From: Nitrospinales bacterium
Lineage (GTDB): Bacteria; Nitrospinota; Nitrospinia; Nitrospinales; VA-1
Reading direction: 5' to 3'
Length of the DNA stretch: 64,000 nucleotides
Assembly: GCA_965262115.1 (NCBI GenBank)
Contig: OZ253496.1
Coordinates: 1,664,001 to 1,728,000, forward strand
Made by a program: the position numbers and the translations under genes. The notes under the pieces are model-generated. The model was not told where the DNA came from, searched no databases, and saw only the letters and a program-made list of their open reading frames with translations. This document shows positions 3,227 to 43,080 of the stretch, piece by piece; the stretch's first letter is position 1, and every line of letters starts with the position of its first letter.

Positions 3227-3374
3227 AACAATTCTGAGGCAAAGATTTATATTTTGTGGAGATTTCCATTATAGTTACTATCAAGTCCTAACTATATAAA
3301 AATAGGAATTGATCTTCCCCTGAATTGGTGGACACATCGAAAAGTGTGGATAATACACTTTTGGAGGTGTTTTT

Positions 3375-3709
3375 ATGGGAACCAAACGCAGGAGTTTCAG
3401 TAAAGAATTCAAGTTAGAAGCGGTTCGATTGGTTATTGAAGTAGGCGATAGCATTGCCCGGGTGTCCCGGGATCTGGGAATCCGTTCTGCCCTTCTGGGT
3501 CGCTGGAAACAGGAGTATGAGGAGGATCAGGGGAATGCGTTTCCCGGCAAAGGACAGCTTAAGCCGGGAGATGAGTTGCAGCAGTTGCGGCGAGAAAACG
3601 CTCGCCTTCGTATGGAGCGGGACATATTAAAAAAGGCGGCAGTTATCTTTGTGATGTCCTCTTCATTTGTCTTCATGCCCCGAAGGGGTACTCGAAGGGT
3701 TCCCAATGA
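3375..3709 (+). pseudogene. IS3 OrfA (HTH), interrupted by a 41-bp micro-element
   Basis: RRSFSKEFKLEAV...ILKKA. Removing 3650-3690 restores ...VIFSKGSQ* (97 aa) with an ATGA overlap to orfB. Confidence 0.85.
3650..3690 (+). mobile_element. 40-bp micro-element (family B) inserted in IS3 orfA
   Basis: TGTGAT...CTTCATGCCCCGAAGGGGTA; precise removal restores orfA. Confidence 0.85.
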
Positions 3710-4569
3710 GATATCGGTTTATACGGGATCATCGAGAAGCATTTCCGGTAAGCCCGATGTGCCGGGTTCTGGAAGTGGGACGAAGTGGGTTCTATGCCTG
3801 GCTGAGCCGCCCCGAGAGCCTGAGGAGCCGTGAGAAGCAGCGATGGGTTGATGAGATCAAAACCGTTTATAAGAAGAGTCGCCAGACTTATGGCAGTCCC
3901 AGAATTCATGAGGACTTGAAAGACAAGGGATATGCCATTGGCAGGCATCGTATTGCCTGTCTTATGCGCGAGCATGGAATCGTTGCCAAGCACAAAAGAA
4001 AGTTCAGGGTGACAACCGATTCCAAACATAATCACCCGGTGGCAAAAAACAAACTGCAACGGCGGTTTAATGTTGCTGAGCCCGGTCAATGCTGGGTTTC
4101 GGATATCACCTATATCCCGACTCAAGAGGGCTGGTTATACCTTGCGGTGACGCTGGATTTATTCCACCGTAAAGTTATTGGTTGGGCCATGGATCGTTGG
4201 ATAACCCGTTGGTTGGTAATGAGAGCTTTAAATATGGCAATGAAGAACGGCGGCATGAAACCGGGATTGATTCACCATTCTGACCGGGGGGTTCAATATG
4301 CCTGCAACGATTTTCAAGCCTTGCTCAATGTTCATGGGATAGAGTGCAGTATGAGCCGGAAGGGCGATTGCTGGGATAACGCCGTGGCGGAGAGTTTTTT
4401 CCATACTCTCAAAGTGGAACTCATTCATAACCGGAACTACAAAACCCGTCAGCAAGCAAAGAAGGATATTTTTGAATATATCGAAGTGTTTTATAATCGG
4501 CAACGCCGTCACTAATATCTCGGCTATCTCAGCCCTGCCGAATTCGAGAAACAGGCCTATGCCTCTTAA
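3706..4569 (+). pseudogene. IS3 OrfB (DDE integrase core) with premature stop
   Basis: WVSDITY, HSDRG and DNAVAESFF motifs; RRH*YLGYLSP has TAA at 4513-4515 where Ser is expected, and the frame continues to TAA at 4569. Confidence 0.9.
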
Positions 4570-4599
4570 CTAACTGTCCACTAAAACAGGGGAAGATCA

Positions 4600-16599: not shown

Positions 16600-18243
16600 T
16601 TGCTCGCGTTAAACTTTTCTAGTTCCTTGAATAATGCCAAACCTAATCGGGCTTTGAAAAAAATGGGCTTATTGACTGCCAGACCTTCTTCCGCCAAATT
16701 CGTTGTGGAAGATCCCTATTTTCTCGATGTCGATGAACACCCGGATTGGCAAGGCCAATTCGGAAACAGCCAGCCGATAAAGCTGGAAATTGGCTTTGGA
16801 ATGGGAGATTTCCTGATTGAAATGGCGGCCCGGGAACCCCATAGCAATTTTGTCGGGATAGATTTTTCCCAAGATGGTATCCGCAAATTATTGTCCAGGG
16901 TAAAAGACCTTCAAATAAAGAATATTCGTGTTGTCTATGGCGATGTCCGGGAAAAAGTCCCTCTCCTTTTCCATGATGGCGAATTGAATATGGTCTATAT
17001 CAATTTCCCCGACCCCTGGCCGAGAAAAAGGCATTTTAAACGACGGCTGATCAAACCAGCATTGGTCACGCTGATCGCCAGGAAGCTGACTCTGGAAGGT
17101 CACGTTTATCTGGCCACCGACAGCGAGCCCTATGCCCATGAAATTCTTGAATATTTCAATGCTGAGCCTTTGTTGCAAAACAAAAGTCAGGAGTCTGGTT
17201 TTCTCTTTCGCCGCGACCATCTGCCCAAAACGAAATACGAAAAAAGTTTTATTTACGCTGGGGATAGAATCCATTACCTGGAATATTCCCGACTAGCGGC
17301 AAAGGGACAACCCGGGAAAAAAGTTTCTTCTGCACGAGAAGAAACCAATGAGCTTGCAGAGGAAAAAATCTTGAGCAATGACGAAATGCTGATTAAAAAA
17401 TTTGAGCGTGCTGAAGCGAAAGCTAAAGATGCCTGTGACCTTCAACAGCTTGGCGGTCATTTAGCCTCTGCAGGAGACAGGCAGTGGGCCGAAAAAGTTT
17501 ATCAAAAAGCCGAAGCCATGGCCGAAGACAGTCTGGACTTGAATTGGCTGGCCTACAGTGTTTCTGAAACACTGGGTGATAAAGACTGGGCGAAAAAATT
17601 ATACGATAAAGCCGAAGCCATGGCCGAAAGCAGTCTGGATTTGAACTGGCTGGCCTACAGTGTTTCTGAAACACTGGGCGATAAAAACCGGGCGATAAAA
17701 CTCTATGAGAAAGCTGAGAACAACCCCCAAAATATTCGTGAACTCTGTGATCTCGCTGACAGCATTTCTGAAACATTCGGCGATCAGGAATGGCAAATAA
17801 AAGTTTATAAGAAAGCCGAGGCTATGGCGAAAGAGCATTCCGACTTCTATGAACTTGCCGACAGCGTCTGTGCAAAGCTTAGCGACAAAAAATGGGCCAG
17901 AGAGCTCTATGAGAAAGCCGAGGACACGGCCCAAGACAGCAGCGACCTCCATAGTCTGGTCGAGAGCCTTGCAGAAAAGCTGGGCGATCAGGAATGGGCT
18001 AAAAAAGGTTATTTAAAGGCCGAAAGCATGGCCCAGGACAGCACTGATTTCTGCTGTCTGGCCGAGAGCCTGTTGCAAAATTTGAGTGATGAGGAATGGG
18101 CCAGGAAGTTATATAAAAAAGCCGAAGACCAAGCTGAAGAAAGTTTTGAATACCGCTGGCTGGCCGACAGCCTGAGTGAATTACTGGGTGATAAAGAATG
18201 GGCTGAACAGGTATGTCAGAAAGCGAAAAACCTTTTTAGCTGA
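16600..18243 (+). CDS. trmB: tRNA (guanine-N7)-methyltransferase TrmB fused to about 8 helical 34-aa repeats
   Basis: LEIGFGMG, NFPDPWPRKRHFKRRL, ATD and TKYEK; C-terminal W-A-x-K-x-Y-x-K-A-E repeats. True start may be ATG 16663. Confidence 0.88.
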   Translation: MLALNFSSSLNNAKPNRALKKMGLLTARPSSAKFVVEDPYFLDVDEHPDWQGQFGNSQPIKLEIGFGMGDFLIEMAAREPHSNFVGIDFSQDGIRKLLSRVKDLQIKNIRVVYGDVREKVPLLFHDGELNMVYINFPDPWPRKRHFKRRLIKPALVTLIARKLTLEGHVYLATDSEPYAHEILEYFNAEPLLQNKSQESGFLFRRDHLPKTKYEKSFIYAGDRIHYLEYSRLAAKGQPGKKVSSAREETNELAEEKILSNDEMLIKKFERAEAKAKDACDLQQLGGHLASAGDRQWAEKVYQKAEAMAEDSLDLNWLAYSVSETLGDKDWAKKLYDKAEAMAESSLDLNWLAYSVSETLGDKNRAIKLYEKAENNPQNIRELCDLADSISETFGDQEWQIKVYKKAEAMAKEHSDFYELADSVCAKLSDKKWARELYEKAEDTAQDSSDLHSLVESLAEKLGDQEWAKKGYLKAESMAQDSTDFCCLAESLLQNLSDEEWARKLYKKAEDQAEESFEYRWLADSLSELLGDKEWAEQVCQKAKNLFS

Positions 18244-33341: not shown

Positions 33342-35621
33342 ATGTTGAAAAAAGCCCACATTTTTTTTGCGGCCCTGATTGGTTTTACTCTTCTTATCTC
33401 GGTCCCCTTTGTGTTTGCTCAAGAAGGTGAAAACATCCAGTCCGTGAAGGTGCAAGGGAACAAGAGGATTGACGAGTCAACGATCCTCTATTACATCAAA
33501 TCCAAGCCCGGCACCGTTTTCTCCAAAAAACAAATCCGTGAGGATATCGAGCAAATATACAGCCTGGGGCAATTCAAGGACATCCGTGTTGAAACGCGCG
33601 AGACCCTGAAGGGGCTGGAGGTTGAATTTTTTGTCGAAGAGATTCCTTCAATTGAGGATGTTGAAATCGTGGGGACTGACAGGGTTGACGCGAATGACAT
33701 CCGGGAAAAAATTAGGCTCAAGCGGGGAGCGACTTTTAGTGATCACCTGGTTCTGGAAAACAGTGAGGAAATCCTCAAGCTTTATCGTGAGAAAGGATAC
33801 TTTTTTGCCCAGGTAAATATCGATACCCAGTCCGGTCAGGAAAACATGGTTAACGTTACCATCAGGATCAAGGAAGGAGAAAAGGTAAAAATTGAAAAGA
33901 TCCGTTTTTCAGGAAACAGATCCTTTCCGGATAAAGAACTCCGTGAACAGATGGAAACTCAGGAAAGGACCTGGTATTCCTTTATAGATGATTCAGGAGT
34001 GTACCAAAAAGATATCTTGAAGCTGGATATGTTCCGGGTAGAAGGTTTTTACCACGATCACGGTTTTCTCAGGATCAAGGTATTGGAGCCTCGTATAGAG
34101 ATCAACAAAAAATCCAGGGAAGTTCATATTGCTATCCCGGTTGAGGAAGGTCCGCAGTTTCGCGTGAAGACTTTGGACTTGAGTGATGATGATGCGGTTT
34201 CTCCGGATGAAATTCAAAAAAGCATTCAGACGAAGGTTGGCGACATCTACAATGTGTCCCAGCTTCGTCAGGATATTTTAACGATCACTGATTTGTACTC
34301 CCAAAAAGGTTATGCCTATGCTGACGCGAACCCGATATCCAAGTTAAACGATGAAGATCGCACCGTTGATTTGTCCATTGAAGTCGATAAAGGCAAAAAG
34401 GTTTATGTTGGCAATATTGAAATTCTGGGAAATATTAAAACCCGGGACAATGTTATCCGCCGTGAATTCCGGCTGAAGGAAGGGGAGTTGTTTGACGGTT
34501 CCAAATTGAAGCGGAGTAAACAACGGGTCAACAACCTCAACTTTTTTGAAGATGTCAAGATTGATACCCATAGAGGCCAGGATCCTGACCTCATTGATAT
34601 CCTCACGACAGTGACAGAAAGGCCGACCGGGTCGTTTTCAGTAGGTGCTGGTTTTAGCTCGGTTGAGAATTTGATTTTTACTACCTCCATCACCCAGGAC
34701 AACCTGCTCGGAAATGGTCAGAGGCTGAGCTTGAATGCCCAGTTGTCCTCCATCCGTTCGGATTTTAATTTAAGCTTCACCGAGCCGCGTTTGTTTGATT
34801 CCGAAATACTATTTGGAGTCGATGCGTTTAATGAGGAGCAGGATTTTCTCAGCTTCGATTCCCAATCAATCGGAGGCGGTATTCGCCTGGGTAAAAATAT
34901 TTCTGAGTATGATTCAGTTAACCTCAGATACCGATTTGAGGATGTAGAGGTGACGGGGGTGGCCGCAGACGATGAAACGGAGTTTTTTAAGAATGAGACC
35001 CGCGTGACCAGCAGAATTGCTCCCACCTATGTTCATGATTCGCGGGATAATTTTTTAAATCCTTCCAGGGGATGGAGGCATGTGGTAGGATTTGAACTCG
35101 CCGGCCTGGGAGGCGCTAAATTCACCAAATCCTTTTATGAAGTGACGTACTACCACCCCCTGTGGGGGAAGCTTGTTGGTGCGGCGCACGCCCGGATTAA
35201 TTACGCGGCGGGGTATGGTGGAGAAAAGCTTCCAAGTTTTGAAAGGTACTTCATGGGAGGGCCGACTTCCCTCAGAGGCTTTACGATTGAAGATGTCGGG
35301 CCAAAAGATAGGGATGGCGATCCGGTAGGGGGTAACCAGGCACTTCTTTTGAATTTGGAATTACAGTACCCCTTTACCAAATCTTTTCGCGGGTTTGTGT
35401 TTTATGACCGTGGTAATGTTTATGGCAGTCGTCCTGACACTGGTACTGCATCTACTACATCCGATAATTTTGACTTGGGAAAAATGCGCAGCAGCGTAGG
35501 CGCGGGTATTCGTTTTATCAGTCCTTTTGGCCCACTGGGTTTTGCCTATGGCATCAAGCTGGACAAGGAAACTGGCGAAGAGGCGGCAGAATTTCATTTC
35601 TCGGCAGGAAGCGCATTTTAA
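33342..35621 (+). CDS. bamA: Outer membrane protein assembly factor BamA
   Basis: Signal peptide, POTRA domains, LRGF motif, SPFGP and terminal Phe. Confidence 0.95.
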   Translation: MLKKAHIFFAALIGFTLLISVPFVFAQEGENIQSVKVQGNKRIDESTILYYIKSKPGTVFSKKQIREDIEQIYSLGQFKDIRVETRETLKGLEVEFFVEEIPSIEDVEIVGTDRVDANDIREKIRLKRGATFSDHLVLENSEEILKLYREKGYFFAQVNIDTQSGQENMVNVTIRIKEGEKVKIEKIRFSGNRSFPDKELREQMETQERTWYSFIDDSGVYQKDILKLDMFRVEGFYHDHGFLRIKVLEPRIEINKKSREVHIAIPVEEGPQFRVKTLDLSDDDAVSPDEIQKSIQTKVGDIYNVSQLRQDILTITDLYSQKGYAYADANPISKLNDEDRTVDLSIEVDKGKKVYVGNIEILGNIKTRDNVIRREFRLKEGELFDGSKLKRSKQRVNNLNFFEDVKIDTHRGQDPDLIDILTTVTERPTGSFSVGAGFSSVENLIFTTSITQDNLLGNGQRLSLNAQLSSIRSDFNLSFTEPRLFDSEILFGVDAFNEEQDFLSFDSQSIGGGIRLGKNISEYDSVNLRYRFEDVEVTGVAADDETEFFKNETRVTSRIAPTYVHDSRDNFLNPSRGWRHVVGFELAGLGGAKFTKSFYEVTYYHPLWGKLVGAAHARINYAAGYGGEKLPSFERYFMGGPTSLRGFTIEDVGPKDRDGDPVGGNQALLLNLELQYPFTKSFRGFVFYDRGNVYGSRPDTGTASTTSDNFDLGKMRSSVGAGIRFISPFGPLGFAYGIKLDKETGEEAAEFHFSAGSAF

Positions 35622-35642
35622 ATTTTAAAAAGGATCAGATTT

Positions 35643-36185
35643 ATGCGATTGACAATTTTTCGGAAGTTCAGAATCATCTGCCCACTACTCATTTTGGGTT
35701 TTTTAGTTTGCGGACCTTTTGCAGTTTCGTCTTTTGCCGCAGATAGCCGGATAGGGTTTCTGAATATTCAAAAAGCGGTTTCCAGTACCAAGGAGTGGAA
35801 AACCAGGTTTAAAAAATTTAAAACGGATTTCACCAAAGAGAAGAAAAGAATCAAGGTTAAGGAACGGAAGATCAAAAAAATGTTGGAGGATTTGAATAAA
35901 CAAAGCTTTGTTCTGGATCCGAAGCTGAAAAAGAAAAAAGAAGACACATTTAGAAAAGAAAAAGTTGCTTTTGAAAGATATGTCCAGGACCAGAACGCGG
36001 AGTTCGGTAAAAAAGAAAAAGAAATGGCCCAAAAAATCCTGCTTAAAATGATGGGGATCATAAAAAAAATCGGCAAAGAAAAGAAATATACAATGATCCT
36101 GGAGCAGAAGTCGGTTCTATATCACGATAAAGGAAACGATTTGACGGGCATTGCGACCCGGGCCTATAACAGGGCTAATAAATAG
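35643..36185 (+). CDS. skp: OmpH/Skp periplasmic chaperone, copy 1
   Basis: Signal peptide, IGFLN, Lys-rich coiled coil, YTMIL...DLT; lies after bamA. Confidence 0.88.
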   Translation: MRLTIFRKFRIICPLLILGFLVCGPFAVSSFAADSRIGFLNIQKAVSSTKEWKTRFKKFKTDFTKEKKRIKVKERKIKKMLEDLNKQSFVLDPKLKKKKEDTFRKEKVAFERYVQDQNAEFGKKEKEMAQKILLKMMGIIKKIGKEKKYTMILEQKSVLYHDKGNDLTGIATRAYNRANK

Positions 36186-36275
36186 TTTCTGGTTATGCTC
36201 CAGCTAAAATAACCTGCTCGACTCCCGCGCTTGAACTCGCTGAAATTTCCAGAAAAGTCATAGGCATTCAACAGT

Positions 36276-36343
36276 GAGACCTTTGCATAACCTCGAAGGG
36301 GTAATCTCGCTTTTCTGTTTTTTTCGACTTATGCAAAGCTCTC
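36276..36343. mobile_element. Family A MITE, internally deleted (duplicated at 37096-37163)
   Basis: TIRs GAGACCTTTGCATAA / TTATGCAAAGCTCTC; 9-bp TSD TTCAACAGT/TTTAACAGT; carries a CCTCGAAGGGGTA family B remnant. Confidence 0.8.
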
Positions 36344-36462
36344 TTTAACAGTAAGAATGGACTCCTGATATGATGGATATTAATGAAATCAAGAAAATCA
36401 TACCCCATAGATATCCTTTCTCGGCAGGAAGCGCATTTTAAATTTTAAAAAGGATCAGATTT

Positions 36463-37005
36463 ATGCGATTGACAATTTTTCGGAAGTTCAGAATCATCTG
36501 CCCACTACTCATTTTGGGTTTTTTAGTTTGCGGACCTTTTGCAGTTTCGTCTTTTGCCGCAGATAGCCGGATAGGGTTTCTGAATATTCAAAAAGCGGTT
36601 TCCAGTACCAAGGAGTGGAAAACCAGGTTTAAAAAATTTAAAACGGATTTCACCAAAGAGAAGAAAAGAATCAAGGTTAAGGAACGGAAGATCAAAAAAA
36701 TGTTGGAGGATTTGAATAAACAAAGCTTTGTTCTGGATCCGAAGCTGAAAAAGAAAAAAGAAGACACATTTAGAAAAGAAAAAGTTGCTTTTGAAAGATA
36801 TGTCCAGGACCAGAACGCGGAGTTCGGTAAAAAAGAAAAAGAAATGGCCCAAAAAATCCTGCTTAAAATGATGGGGATCATAAAAAAAATCGGCAAAGAA
36901 AAGAAATATACAATGATCCTGGAGCAGAAGTCGGTTCTATATCACGATAAAGGAAACGATTTGACGGGCATTGCGACCCGGGCCTATAACAGGGCTAATA
37001 AATAG
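36463..37005 (+). CDS. skp: OmpH/Skp periplasmic chaperone, copy 2 (identical)
   Basis: Identical protein to 35643-36185. Confidence 0.85.
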   Translation: MRLTIFRKFRIICPLLILGFLVCGPFAVSSFAADSRIGFLNIQKAVSSTKEWKTRFKKFKTDFTKEKKRIKVKERKIKKMLEDLNKQSFVLDPKLKKKKEDTFRKEKVAFERYVQDQNAEFGKKEKEMAQKILLKMMGIIKKIGKEKKYTMILEQKSVLYHDKGNDLTGIATRAYNRANK

Positions 37006-37189
37006 TTTCTGGTTATGCTCCAGCTAAAATAACCTGCTCGACTCCCGCGCTTGAACTCGCTGAAATTTCCAGAAAAGTCATAGGCATTCAACAGTGAGAC
37101 CTTTGCATAACCTCGAAGGGGTAATCTCGCTTTTCTGTTTTTTTCGACTTATGCAAAGCTCTCTTTAACAGTAAGAATGGACTCCTGAT

Positions 37190-39437: not shown

Positions 39438-39539
39438 TTTCGCGGCCTGAACGAATAGCGCATCGCATGCCCATAAATTACTGCTAGCCTATAGCGACAA
39501 CGGCCGCACCTTCTGTAAATCTTCTTTTTGCCCTTCATT

Positions 39540-40346
39540 ATGGATGCCACCCATGAAAAAATAGGTCTTATCGCCGGAGCGGGAGAAGTTCCCGTATATT
39601 TTGCACGCAAAGCCAGCCAGCTGGGGATAAAAATTATCAGCGTGGGTTTCACAGAGGAAATCCAAAACGGTCTGGCTCCGTTTTCGGAAATGAGCTATTC
39701 GATTGGAGTCGGCCAGGCGGGGAAAATTCTTGAGACCTTTAAAAAGAACAATGTCAAAGATCTGTTGATTCTCGGCAAGGTTGAAAAAAGCGTCATTTTT
39801 AAATTGCAGAAATTTGATCTTAAGGCCCTTAAGTTCTTAAAAAATATTGTGACCCATGAAGATAAGGTATTGCTGTTAGGAATGATTGATGAACTTGCAA
39901 AGGAAGGATTCAGAGTTTTAAGTCAAAAAGAATTTTTGTCGGATATTTTTCCGTCCAAAGGAAACCTGACTAACCGGGTGCCCAGCAAACAGGAGTTGGC
40001 GGATATGGAATTTGGACTGCCTATTGCCCGAAAACTGGCGGATATGGAAATCGGTCAGACTCTCATCGTAAAAAACAAAACGGTGGTGGCCGTTGAAGCT
40101 CTGGAAGGAACAGATGAGGCCATTCAAAGAGGTTGTGAACTAGCCCAGGGGGAATGTGTGGTGATCAAGGTCAGCAGAACCAATCAGGATTACCGTTATG
40201 ACAGCCCCGGCATTGGACCGCAAACCATTCGTATGCTGAGCGAAGGATCGGTCCTGGCGCTGGAGGCAGAGCGAGTTATGGTGGTGGAACAGGAGAAAGT
40301 TCTTGAACTGGCTGATGCGGCAAAAATCGTCGTGACTTGTTACTAG
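39540..40346 (+). CDS. lpxI: UDP-2,3-diacylglucosamine diphosphatase LpxI
   Basis: IGLIAG.G, IGQ, VAVEALEGTD..I.R and QD.RYD.P.IG. Confidence 0.92.
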   Translation: MDATHEKIGLIAGAGEVPVYFARKASQLGIKIISVGFTEEIQNGLAPFSEMSYSIGVGQAGKILETFKKNNVKDLLILGKVEKSVIFKLQKFDLKALKFLKNIVTHEDKVLLLGMIDELAKEGFRVLSQKEFLSDIFPSKGNLTNRVPSKQELADMEFGLPIARKLADMEIGQTLIVKNKTVVAVEALEGTDEAIQRGCELAQGECVVIKVSRTNQDYRYDSPGIGPQTIRMLSEGSVLALEAERVMVVEQEKVLELADAAKIVVTCY

Positions 40347-40417
40347 GTCTGGCGAGCCGCCGGTGGCTGTGATACTCCCAACATTAGCTTCATGCCCCGA
40401 AGCAACTGTGTTAAATG

Positions 40418-41368
40418 TCAAGTGCTGGCAATGAGATTTTCATTCCAGAGTGTTTTTGTTTTGATCATGGTATTGATGATCGTTAATAACTTTCTCATGC
40501 ATGCGGTAATGGCAACTTTAAAGGGTTTGCCCTTTTCGATGAGGCGTGTGTAAAAGGTACGAATCACGGGATTATGCTGCATGGCAGTGACGGCGGCCAT
40601 GTATAAAGCGGCACGCACATTGGCGCGACCGCCCCAGATACACCGGCGGCCCCGGAACTTTCCGCTGTCCCGATTGAGGGGAGCGAGACCGATGAGGGCG
40701 GCGATTTGCTTCTGATTAAGAACTCCAAGTTCCGGAACCCCGGCCAAGAGGTTGACAGCCAGAACGGGACCGGCACCGGGAACACTTTGTATGATCTGGT
40801 CGTGCTCACGCCAGGCAGAACTGTTTTTGATGGTTCTGGAAAGGTCGCCATCGATTTTTCGCAAGCGTTTTTTAAGAGATTCGATATGCTCCTTAATGTC
40901 TTTACATATCCATTTTGGAGCTTGTTTTAGACGGGTTTTTTCTTTGGTCAGCATCTCGATCAACTGGCGACGGCGTGTCACTAGAGCTGAGAGTTCAAGA
41001 GATTCTTCGTCTTTGATTTTCCTGACCTCAGGACGTATGGCCTTGGCAAAATGGGCCAGCACAAGAGAATCAATGACATCGGTTTTTGCCAGTTTCCCGG
41101 TGGCTTTGGCAAAATCACGAACTTGCCGTGGGTTGACCACGGCTACTGGCAGTCGACCCGCAACCAGGGCCGAAGCCAACGGGATCTCTAAGCCGCCTGT
41201 GGCTTCCAAAACGATCAATGGAGGATTTAAGGCGGATAAACTCTCGACCAAACCAGCAATCCCTTCTTCATTGTTAGCGGTTTGCCAGGTTTCTTGAGTC
41301 ATGCTGTCAGCAACATCCAGATGGAGTTTAGAAATATCGATGCCAATAAAATGGGGTTTCTGATTCAT
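40418..41368 (-). CDS. IS110 DEDD recombinase/transposase (intact, 316 aa)
   Basis: GIDISK, LEATG and KTDVID give the DEDD tetrad; SVPGAG, RDSG catalytic Ser, GGRANVRAALY and ACMRKLL. Confidence 0.96.
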   Translation of the reverse strand: MNQKPHFIGIDISKLHLDVADSMTQETWQTANNEEGIAGLVESLSALNPPLIVLEATGGLEIPLASALVAGRLPVAVVNPRQVRDFAKATGKLAKTDVIDSLVLAHFAKAIRPEVRKIKDEESLELSALVTRRRQLIEMLTKEKTRLKQAPKWICKDIKEHIESLKKRLRKIDGDLSRTIKNSSAWREHDQIIQSVPGAGPVLAVNLLAGVPELGVLNQKQIAALIGLAPLNRDSGKFRGRRCIWGGRANVRAALYMAAVTAMQHNPVIRTFYTRLIEKGKPFKVAITACMRKLLTIINTMIKTKTLWNENLIAST

Positions 41369-41374
41369 AATTTG

Positions 41375-41584
41375 GTCTCCCAGCCTTGCCGATGCGGGCT
41401 CAGTGGCCCAGGCAACTGTTCGGGTTAATCAAAATAGGACACAACGATCTGCGCTTCGGGACGGGCTTAAAAGCCCAAGGGGTAAACGATCTATTGTGCC
41501 CTGAATCAAATCCTGGGAGCTTGTGGAAAACACAAAACCGGCTTCCCACAGGGCTCACAGGTACAACTACTACAAATTCCCCTT
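41375..41584 (-). ncRNA. Bridge RNA (5' stem-loop, target-binding loop, donor-binding loop)
   Basis: Target guides TTTACCCCT (41486-41478) and TCCCGAAG (41461-41454) flank a GGGC/GCCC stem; donor guides ACAGTTGC (41419-41412) and GCAAG (41389-41385); 5' hairpin at 41512-41561. Boundaries approximate. Confidence 0.85.
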
Positions 41585-41605
41585 ATGAACAACATACAAG
41601 GGGTA

Positions 41606-41874
41606 AACTGGCAATATCTTTAACTTCTGGGCAAAAAGTTATCTCGGCTTGAGAAACTCCACTGGAACGTCATCGCGAGCTGCGGCGCGGCGATCCAGTT
41701 TTGTTTGCATCATGCCCAGAAGGGGTAAAATAAAGGCATTGTAATCTGCCACCGGCGGCTCGCCGGTTAACCCGAGATGCTGATCGAGAACAAAATGAAG
41801 ATAATGGAAATTACCAGCGGAGGTTCTCCGCCCACTAGCTGTGGAGGCAGGAGCAATGCCCATGGAGCGAGAGC
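41606..41874. repeat. Family C repeat cluster with a partial family B copy (to 41727)
   Basis: AAGTTATCTCGGC, CATGCCCAGAAGGGGTA, CCACCGGCGGCTCGCC and ACCAGCGGAGGTTCTCCGCCCACTAGC modules. Confidence 0.7.
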
Positions 41875-43080
41875 ATGATTGATAGCAGTAACAAGACATT
41901 GCATCCTGAGTCCAGCGTCACGCTGGATTTTTTAATTATTGCTGGCGAGGCCTCCGGAGACTTGCATGGCTCGAATCTGGTATCGGCTTTAAAGGCTCTT
42001 TTGCCTCAGGTCCGTTTCAGCGGAATGGGTGGGTCGAGAATGCGGCAGGCTGGGGTGGAAACACTCTTTGGCATTGAGCGTATGGGCGCGGTCGGGGTGG
42101 TTGAGGTGCTGGGAGAATTTGGTCATTATTACAAGGTCTATCGGACATTGATGAAGGAAATCGCCTCGCGCCGTTATGATGCGGTGATTCTCATCGACTA
42201 TCCCACACTAAATCTTAGATTGGCAAAACAGGCACGACGTTTTGCTTGCCCGGTATTATTTTTCATCAGCCCGCAGATTTGGGCCTGGAGGAAGGGAAGA
42301 ATCCGGAATATCCGGGCGTCTGTGAGCAAGATGTTTGTCATTCTCCCGTTTGAAGAAAAACTGTATCTCGATGCCGGGGTAGACGCGGAATTTCTGGGGC
42401 ATCCGTTTGTGGACATGGTCCATCCCAGCCGGACTCGTGAAGAGAGCCGGGTAAAATATTCCTTAAATCCAGAGATCAGGACCATCGGGCTTTTGCCCGG
42501 AAGCAGGATGAATGAGGTAAACTCCCTTTTAGATGTGATGGTTCAGGCGGGAGAAAAAATTCGCGATGAACTGGGTTCCTGCCAGTTTCTTCTTCCCGTT
42601 GCCGACTCTATCGATCCCGATCTGATCCGCCAGCGTCTGGGTACCAACCCGCTGGGTATCCAATTGGTTGAGGGAGAACCCTATGATGTGATGAATAGTT
42701 GTGACATGTTGATCATTGCATCCGGTTCTGCCACGCTGGAAGCGGGAATTCTTGGATGCCCCATGGTCATCATCTACAAGTTGAATCCCTTGACCTACTT
42801 GCTGGCACAGTTGTTAGTTGATGCTCCATTGGTAGGTCTGGTGAATATTGTGGCGGAGGAAGAGGTGGTGCCCGAATTAATACAGGATAAAGTGACAGCA
42901 GAAAATATCTCTACCGAGGTGCTTGCAGTTTTGCGGGTTTCTGGAAAGGAACAGGCTGTTCGCGAGCGTCTTCTTGAAATCAGAAAAACTCTGGGAGAAC
43001 CCGGGGTCATGAAGGTTGTCGCGAAACGCATTGCCGATTTTATGGATAAATTGAGCGCCAATGAAAAAACTCCTGTTTAA
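41875..43080 (+). CDS. lpxB: Lipid-A-disaccharide synthase
   Basis: AGEASGDLHG, IDYP..N, SPQIWAWR, LLPGSR..E and SGSATLE. Confidence 0.95.
   Translation: MIDSSNKTLHPESSVTLDFLIIAGEASGDLHGSNLVSALKALLPQVRFSGMGGSRMRQAGVETLFGIERMGAVGVVEVLGEFGHYYKVYRTLMKEIASRRYDAVILIDYPTLNLRLAKQARRFACPVLFFISPQIWAWRKGRIRNIRASVSKMFVILPFEEKLYLDAGVDAEFLGHPFVDMVHPSRTREESRVKYSLNPEIRTIGLLPGSRMNEVNSLLDVMVQAGEKIRDELGSCQFLLPVADSIDPDLIRQRLGTNPLGIQLVEGEPYDVMNSCDMLIIASGSATLEAGILGCPMVIIYKLNPLTYLLAQLLVDAPLVGLVNIVAEEEVVPELIQDKVTAENISTEVLAVLRVSGKEQAVRERLLEIRKTLGEPGVMKVVAKRIADFMDKLSANEKTPV

Follow-up and report, generated by a model that had tools for sequence, protein, structure and literature searches.

Gene content and boundaries of the element

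The window, i.e. the whole 64,000-nt stretch of DNA analysed here (positions 1664001-1728000 of G000, a genome assembled as a single 2.68-Mb contig), carries a 1198-bp element of the IS110 family on its minus strand, with a CT dinucleotide at both sides. Its neighbours are two genes that we take from their translations to be lpxI (39528-40346) and lpxB (41875-43080). The features of the locus, in window coordinates, are as follows.

40347..40367, plus strand: older palindromic repeat, host of a micro-element insertion; uninterrupted in genomes G035 and G034 and at G000:1733543
40368..40400, minus strand: right 33 bp of the 40-bp micro-element, starting with the right target TCGGG and finishing with ATCACA
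40401..40402, minus strand: CT core, right copy
40403..40409, minus strand: left donor ACAGTTG, terminus of the 15-nt right end
40416..40421, minus strand: predicted -35 hexamer TTGACA, overlapping the stop codon
40418..41368, minus strand: IS110 recombinase, 316 aa, intact (D11/E55/D97/D100/S236)
41591..41596, minus strand: predicted -10 hexamer TATGTT, 17 bp from the -35 hexamer only when the ends are joined
41594..41598, minus strand: right donor TGTAT, start of the left end, identical in relatives
41599..41600, minus strand: CT core, left copy
41601..41607, minus strand: left target TTTACCC; the micro-element begins at TACCC (41605-41601), the final five of these bases

The 316-aa open reading frame (ORF) matches PF01548 and PF02371 above cut-off, that is, a RuvC-like DEDD domain and a Tnp domain with the catalytic serine. 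Residues D11, E55, D97, D100 and S236 align with the catalytic residues of IS621, whose role has been shown in that protein (PMC11208158; this and the other papers cited are drawn on through their accessible parts). The domain matches and the residue alignment bear out an initial annotation, made from the sequence, which had called the recombinase intact with a DEDD motif and a catalytic serine. The solved structures nearest to it are those of ISCro4 (E 9e-33) and IS621 (E 6e-30), with no other relatives among solved structures.

Read on the minus strand, the flanks are TTTACCC-CT-TCGGG and the joined ends give the donor ACAGTTG-CT-TGTAT, every motif of this earlier reading lying where it had been placed: CT-TGTAT at 41600-41594, CT-TCGGG at 40402-40396, TTTACCCCT as left flank plus core at 41607-41599, and ACAGTTGC, which is also a guide motif (see below), in the right end at 40409-40402. 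The CT core is repeated at both junctions with no further duplication, as seen in 22 copies with both junctions and at orthologous empty sites. The right end is only 15 nt long (40417-40403) and the guides lie upstream of the recombinase; membership of the IS1111 group, in which the guide RNA (seekRNA) lies downstream, the right end is long and the inverted repeats are subterminal, was therefore rejected.

Joining the two ends creates a predicted σ70 promoter (TTGACA-17-TATGTT), and a junction promoter of such a kind has been described for IS621 (PMC11208160). In runs X1 and X3, which may include the source sample, the read depth of the element is ~12-18 times that of its flanks. The contigs of 4 of the 24 listed runs, a form of data in which rare forms drop out, contain neither a circle junction nor an empty-site joint.

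Several other repeats lie elsewhere in the window: an 820-bp tandem duplication, real or an assembly artefact, with two identical 180-aa skp-like genes (35591-37173; genes at 35643-36185 and 36463-37005), seven copies of a 102-bp unit at 61-100% identity (17485-18198), and a 28-bp tandem repeat (2366-2477).

Predicted bridge RNA

The non-coding left end is predicted to encode a bridge RNA with the following parts, all on the minus strand.

41514..41560: predicted 5' hairpin of the bridge RNA, from a single-sequence fold only
41436..41502: target-binding loop domain (outer stem, internal loop, inner stem-loop)
41478..41486: left target guide (LTG) TTTACCCCT
41454..41460: right target guide (RTG) CCCGAAG, 7 nt including the core
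41456: RTG base A, facing the free loop base of the repeat; C in two diverged copies
41452..41453: target-loop handshake guide CG, which can pair with donor positions 7 and 6 (G, and T by wobble)
41379..41424: donor-binding loop domain, whose closing stem overlaps the likely recombinase ribosome-binding site, as read from the sequence
41412..41419: left donor guide (LDG) ACAGTTGC
41385..41393: right donor guide (RDG), discontinuous AT-CG-GCAAG, with a G.T wobble
41383..41384: donor-loop handshake guide GC, of which the G can pair with target position 7 (C)

All four guide motifs that had been proposed are present at the positions given for them, including TCCCGAAG at 41461-41454 and GCAAG at 41389-41385, and a single-sequence fold (z -2.6) places the LTG/RTG and LDG/RDG pairs in two internal loops, as had also been claimed. 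At least three of the four motifs were found in only 6e-5 of 200,000 Markov-shuffled left ends. Both right guides needed revision. Within the RTG as originally given, TCCCGAAG, CCCGAAG is Watson-Crick complementary to the target, but the 5' T faces a G. Among 26 relatives this base is T in 18 and agrees with the flank in 5, and we therefore assign it to the scaffold. Likewise, GCAAG stands where it was reported but is only part of the RDG, the full guide being discontinuous (AT-CG-GCAAG) and including the wobble. A 9-nt right guide with extra U.G and G-C pairs was also considered, and was dropped since the bases involved are conserved scaffold bases that match the flank in 5/26 relatives.

The scaffold covaries among relatives. 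Across 38 distinct sequences (that of the window and 37 from a set of 42 loci, the omitted ones being four long or mis-parsed rows and one duplicate from the same genome), 93.9% of 988 cells are paired and 17 of the 26 pairs show two-sided changes. None of 500 shuffles scored as high, a comparison that overstates significance (see below), and slid controls were 34-46% paired. Unprompted, RNAalifold returns the identical two-loop fold. The flipped A and G positions next to the guides are conserved, which fits the description of IS621 (PMC11208158). Scanning the window with Rfam 15 gave no hits at the gathering score. Taken together, the fold, the scaffold covariation and the guide-flank concordance described below support the IS621-type architecture named in the initial annotation.

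The likely ribosome-binding site of the recombinase (41381-41376, minus strand) is itself the 3' arm of the donor-loop closing stem; judged by position, this overlap could couple folding or processing of the RNA to translation.

Concordance of guides and flanks in relatives

Guides were compared with flanks at 82 loci, i.e. 80 relatives and the two types in this genome. Sixty-seven loci could be parsed and 47 had both flanks (15 did not parse and 20 more were without a flank; one mis-parsed row, L044, was left in), which gave 26 distinct foreign guide pairs with diverse targets. Guides and flanks match at 236 of 312 positions over these 26 pairs, compared with 97.4±9.4 after shuffling and a maximum of 139 in 10,000 shuffles; for this test as for the scaffold, the shuffles overstate significance because the relatives in both sets share kinship. 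By position, the matches of 26 are 2, 14, 18, 19, 22, 22 and 21 on the left and 24, 24, 23, 23, 24 and 5 on the right. From these counts it follows that position 1 is unread, that the LTG is loose distally and that the right guide comprises five bases plus the core. The match between left donor and LDG is not treated as evidence here, having been used to parse the relatives. In addition, all 26 have a donor-loop handshake base able to pair with target position 7 (G:C 18, U:A 5, G:T 3), and the C of the target-loop handshake is partly fixed by the search pattern. Several relatives are also placed in palindromic repeats of other kinds. In two cyanobacterial relatives (L018 and L020), a short palindromic repeat is inserted within the left donor guide itself.

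The micro-element targeted

What the initial annotation called family B is taken to be the 39-41 bp repeat studied here, since the start it gave for the feature, 40368, is exactly the end of the repeat. The consensus is TACCC-S-TNC-S-GGGCAYGA...ATCAC[AG]. In 214 empty hairpins the loop-closing pair is C-G in 140, G-C in 72 and mixed in 2; any base (A, C, G or T) can occupy the middle of the loop. On the opposite strand the hairpin has a G-N-A triloop, and the CT core is present only in the C-G versions. The repeat pattern occurs in 37 of 70 genomes of the family, with up to 354 copies, whereas the reversed control pattern gave 0. Of the CT-core repeat sites in G000, 126 of 156 lie outside long ORFs.

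The repeat, too, has inserted precisely and left no target duplication. At the window locus, the sister genomes G035 and G034 have the older palindrome uninterrupted, with neither the repeat nor the IS, and G015, G021 and G022 have other repeat mosaics (five of five genomes examined, including G034 and G035). Furthermore, 52 of 123 bounded repeats in G000 have an empty-site paralog, typically with no duplication, versus 4 of 246 shifted control windows. The earlier proposal that one mobile element uses another as its landing pad is borne out by the precise insertion and by the locus being empty in the two sister genomes. Y1 HUH transposases (PF01797) gave no match in G000 (one contig, 93.9% complete), while the control was positive in 6 of 14; a RAYT as mover of the repeat was rejected on this ground. 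A lagging-strand bias of the repeat was likewise rejected, there being no replichore strand bias (39/37 and 31/31).

Self-insertion of the micro-element is frequent (for example at G000:C1 1380713, 1969640 and 2211210). The hairpin is then entered after TACCCCTTC, at a distance of two bases from the IS110 site, and to the right of such self-insertions the bases are often GGCTCA where the empty form has GGGGCA.

Copies in the genome

The genome contains 22 copies of the element at 97.9-100% identity (hereafter the main copies), two diverged copies at 88%, and five fragments. A full ORF is retained in 15 of the 24 copies; a 10-bp deletion is common to seven, and both diverged copies are broken. 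Among 26 right junctions, 23 read TCGGGGC, two GCGGGGC with a matching guide change, and one, in a fragment, is one base short, which upholds the claim that the guides are aimed at a genome-wide micro-element. Also in agreement with it, no copies were found at unrelated sites, save one beside the left end of another copy.

Matching on the left is looser. The 20 main copies with both junctions differ from the 14-mer target at 0 (4 copies), 1 (4), 2 (9), 3 (1) or 4 (2) positions, and the earlier description of an exact left target thus holds for the window copy (14/14) but for only 4 of the 20. In the nine copies with two mismatches these fall nearly all at positions 1-2, outside the repeat, and all 28 unoccupied TACCC-CT-TCGGG sites in G000 lie within the repeat; the effective specificity is TACCC-CT-TCGGG, with positions 1-2 loose. 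Copy number overstates the number of independent insertions, since contexts are shared among copies and only 11 left and 13 right contexts are distinct; nine of 22 parsed copies have one left context in common, inside an IS3-type element.

The exceptional copy, at 2144780, follows a 163-bp piece of the left end of another copy, and its internal CT joint mismatches the left guide. This joint resembles the half-match events described in the accessible part of a preprint, or the product of an insertion followed by a deletion. The locus as a whole (G000:C1 2144617-2145981) has 163 bp of the left end in tandem duplicate, with the internal CT as the joint, and another locus (2518286-2519438) carries inverted left-end fragments.

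All 17 detected copies of the IS3-type context (on G000:C1, e.g. 695240-696529) carry the repeat, here 41 bp long, in the overlap of orfA and orfB, apparently interrupting the frameshift fusion, and 10 of the 17 also carry IS110; the same context is found in the window at the 3310-4599 region (G000 1667310-1668599). Composite elements of the genome have left and right halves that are mismatched between loci, and in two regions rich in IS110 and IS3 (G000:C1 90-260 kb and 1.77-2.09 Mb) the GC skew flips sign several times. The skew flips and the mismatched halves suggest inversions between copies.

One guide base and four versions of the repeat

As the CT core lies at the edge between stem and loop, target position 10 is the one free loop base of the hairpin. 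The main copies, whose guide has an A facing this position, are in the T version in each of their 13 distinct right contexts, whereas 22 of 95 distinct empty CT-core contexts are T (Fisher p = 7e-8, or 3.6e-6 with the two other contexts counted). The two diverged copies have an RTG A>C change and are placed in the G version (CT-GCGGG); their guide C also turns the G.T wobble with the donor into a perfect pair. They differ from each other at 4 of 1180 bases, have broken ORFs and share 234 nt of right flank, so that the G-version case counts as one event. A T>G change after the LTG of these copies was tried as a second compensatory change and rejected, the base equalling target position 10 in only 6/26 relatives. 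Within the IS3-type context, IS110 occupies 10 of 14 intact targets and none of three with CT-TCGTG (G000:C1 411525, 603956 and 1658373), these copies not being independent.

The guide bases found in the lineage are A and C (G000), G (G015, G032, G035, L147 and L148) and U (L150). A G guide is found in a C site in L147 and, by wobble, in a T site in G035; a G.T wobble works in IS621 (PMC11208160). The U guide of L150 is in a T site, a mismatch, and the right flank of L148 is not a repeat. The junctions of G032, on separate contigs of a collapsed assembly, read T, T, C and G beside a G guide, and G021, from which no guide was recovered, has 13 T and two C junctions and no A or G. None of 45 surveyed junctions shows the A version, which is the most frequent among the empty repeats of G000. 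It is therefore likely that the guide base facing position 10 decides the version of the repeat that is entered (A for T, C for G, and G for C or, by wobble, T), a rule of one base that is strong in G000 and approximate across the lineage.

Interpretation and alternative explanations

We estimate at roughly 0.93 the probability that this is a 1.2-kb IS621-type IS110 element that enters the same CT of a repeat throughout the genome, likely by means of the predicted bridge RNA of its left end. The recombinase is intact, the CT is duplicated, the guides match both target and donor, the scaffold covaries, and 24 near-full copies have a common target. By analogy with IS621, weak read-through would support a rare excision to give a circle, in which the joined ends would build the σ70 promoter, and a bridge RNA of ~205 nt and the recombinase would be made. 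The target loop would then pair with the repeat and the donor loop with the joined ends, a recombinase tetramer would exchange strands at the CT cores, and the handshake pairs would favour insertion.

Pairing alone might not confine insertions to the repeat, and the DNA hairpin of the repeat could be required as well, as in ISPpu10. We regard this addition as rather unlikely, though it has several observations behind it. Unoccupied sites are in the repeat in only 10 of 37 cases at one mismatch from the 14-mer and 16 of 100 at two, and yet, apart from the self-junction, every occupied main site falls within the repeat, though 9 of 20 have two mismatches; moreover, the closing pair swaps between C-G and G-C in 212 of 214 hairpins, and ISPpu10 provides a precedent. 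The mismatches of occupied sites, however, are mainly at positions 1-2, and the 28 empty sites that match exactly at positions 3-14 all belong to the repeat, so that sequence alone suffices for the pattern. About 80% of the genome is also in long ORFs, where insertions would be purged, the stem is here formed by the left and right targets themselves, unlike the 5' stem-loop of ISPpu10, and two of the four junctions of G032 run into non-repeat DNA.

The uniform T version could instead come from a few founders, spread by homologous recombination, gene conversion or co-movement with IS3, with no choice by the guide. Nine copies indeed have one left context, groups of seven, four and two have common right contexts, the pairing of left with right halves varies from locus to locus, and seven copies have the 10-bp deletion in common. 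We nevertheless hold this to be quite improbable, since 11 left and 13 right contexts, all of the T version, remain after collapsing, the window site is unique and empty in sister genomes, and G021 shows 13 T and two C junctions with no A or G.

That the IS110 recombinase itself moves the micro-element, both being one system, is highly improbable. The two do co-occur in the genus, and no Y1/RAYT transposase was found in G000, but the ends of the repeat (TACCC...ATCAC[AG]) are unlike the donor ACAGTTG/TGTAT, the repeat inserts without a CT core and without duplication, and it is present in 37/70 family genomes against 8/70 for the left end of the IS. Three draft assemblies (G022, G031 and G067) carry 34-74 repeats and have no left-end match. 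Chance or relict motif matches, with the protein alone recognising the target, would accord with the window having no Rfam family hit but are scarcely credible in view of the guide-flank covariation over 26 targets, the scaffold covariation and the published IS621 mechanism.

On the reading that the element is guided to the repeat by its bridge RNA, the spread of the repeat, itself a precise insertion, would supply the IS with new landing sites, most of them intergenic. It is possible, and we propose it tentatively, that the IS is a hyperparasite on a moving ultra-small element, that its guide diversifies at the free base, that sibling lineages split the repeat family by one letter, and that repeats with a changed right target are escape forms. 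The system adds a natural bridge recombinase, of predicted activity, with a 7-nt right guide, and a panel of specificities: ~140 empty CT-core targets in four one-base versions, ~70 coreless ones, 24 occupied ones and a sibling that differs by one guide base. The panel amounts to a natural test of mismatch and wobble tolerance beside the core, and of the role of hairpins in the target. Moreover, elements are nested here at three and four levels (an old palindrome or IS3, then the micro-element, then IS110), and the shuffled flanks suggest that the copies drive rearrangement of the chromosome.

Comparison with known systems

The element follows a mechanism known since 2024, and all testable defining features of IS621-type elements were found in it. 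With IS621 of E. coli and ISCro4/IS622 (PMC11208160, PMC11208158, 10.1101/2025.05.14.653916, PMC13626964; PDB 8wt6 and 9t56), it shares the DEDD plus serine recombinase, the left-end bridge RNA with target and donor loops, the CT core, the junction promoter, the discontinuous right donor guide, the handshake guides and a target in a palindromic repeat of the host. It differs from them in that the protein is distant (E in the 1e-30 range), the target is TTTACCC-CT-TCGGG rather than the ATCAGGC-CT-AC of IS621, the 5' hairpin is longer than in IS621, and the repeat that hosts it is, in place of an E. coli REP, an insertion of 40 bp with a single hairpin. The natural right guide is 7 nt long, against 4 nt in native IS621; longer right guides, as well as natural guide-target concordance, were already known (PMC11208160).

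Two supplementary files of the IS621 paper (PMC11208160) contain the donor motif ACAGTTGCT 490 and 985 times, and the donor class of the element is thus already in that dataset; its guide pair may be there too. In the readable parts of these supplements, at the first two places per file, the passages with TTTACCCCT and TACCCCTTC belong to other targets. A literature search for IS110 in Nitrospina returned one paper, which to judge from its listing concerns another genus, and one on natural guide retargeting returned, among the matches listed, reviews by title.

Targeting of REP sequences by IS110 elements has long been known (PMC1525189). As in ISPpu9, ISPpu10, ISPa11 and ISRm19, all copies enter at one base of a palindromic repeat, and two IS types use one repeat family per genome (PMC1525189; 10.64898/2026.03.19.712850). 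The loose distal LTG, the strict RTG and the G.T wobble likewise match experiments on ISPpu10 and IS621, as far as these are described in the accessible parts of the sources. Unlike the ISPpu-type elements that target REPs, two sibling lineages here stand one guide base apart on two loop versions, and the core lies within the hairpin itself.

The repeat resembles REP/REPIN sequences with RAYT and the small dispersed repeats of cyanobacteria in being short, intergenic, hairpin-forming, multi-copy and nested. It is unlike REP/REPIN in its single hairpin, its asymmetric tail, its precise insertion without duplication and the lack of a Y1 transposase in G000. Finally, IS4321/IS5075 reportedly target the terminal repeats of Tn21, and IS1383 is said to target the repeats of IS1384; like them, the present element is an IS110-family element that lands on another mobile element, but their targets are the ends of large autonomous elements, whereas here the target is a 40-bp unit.
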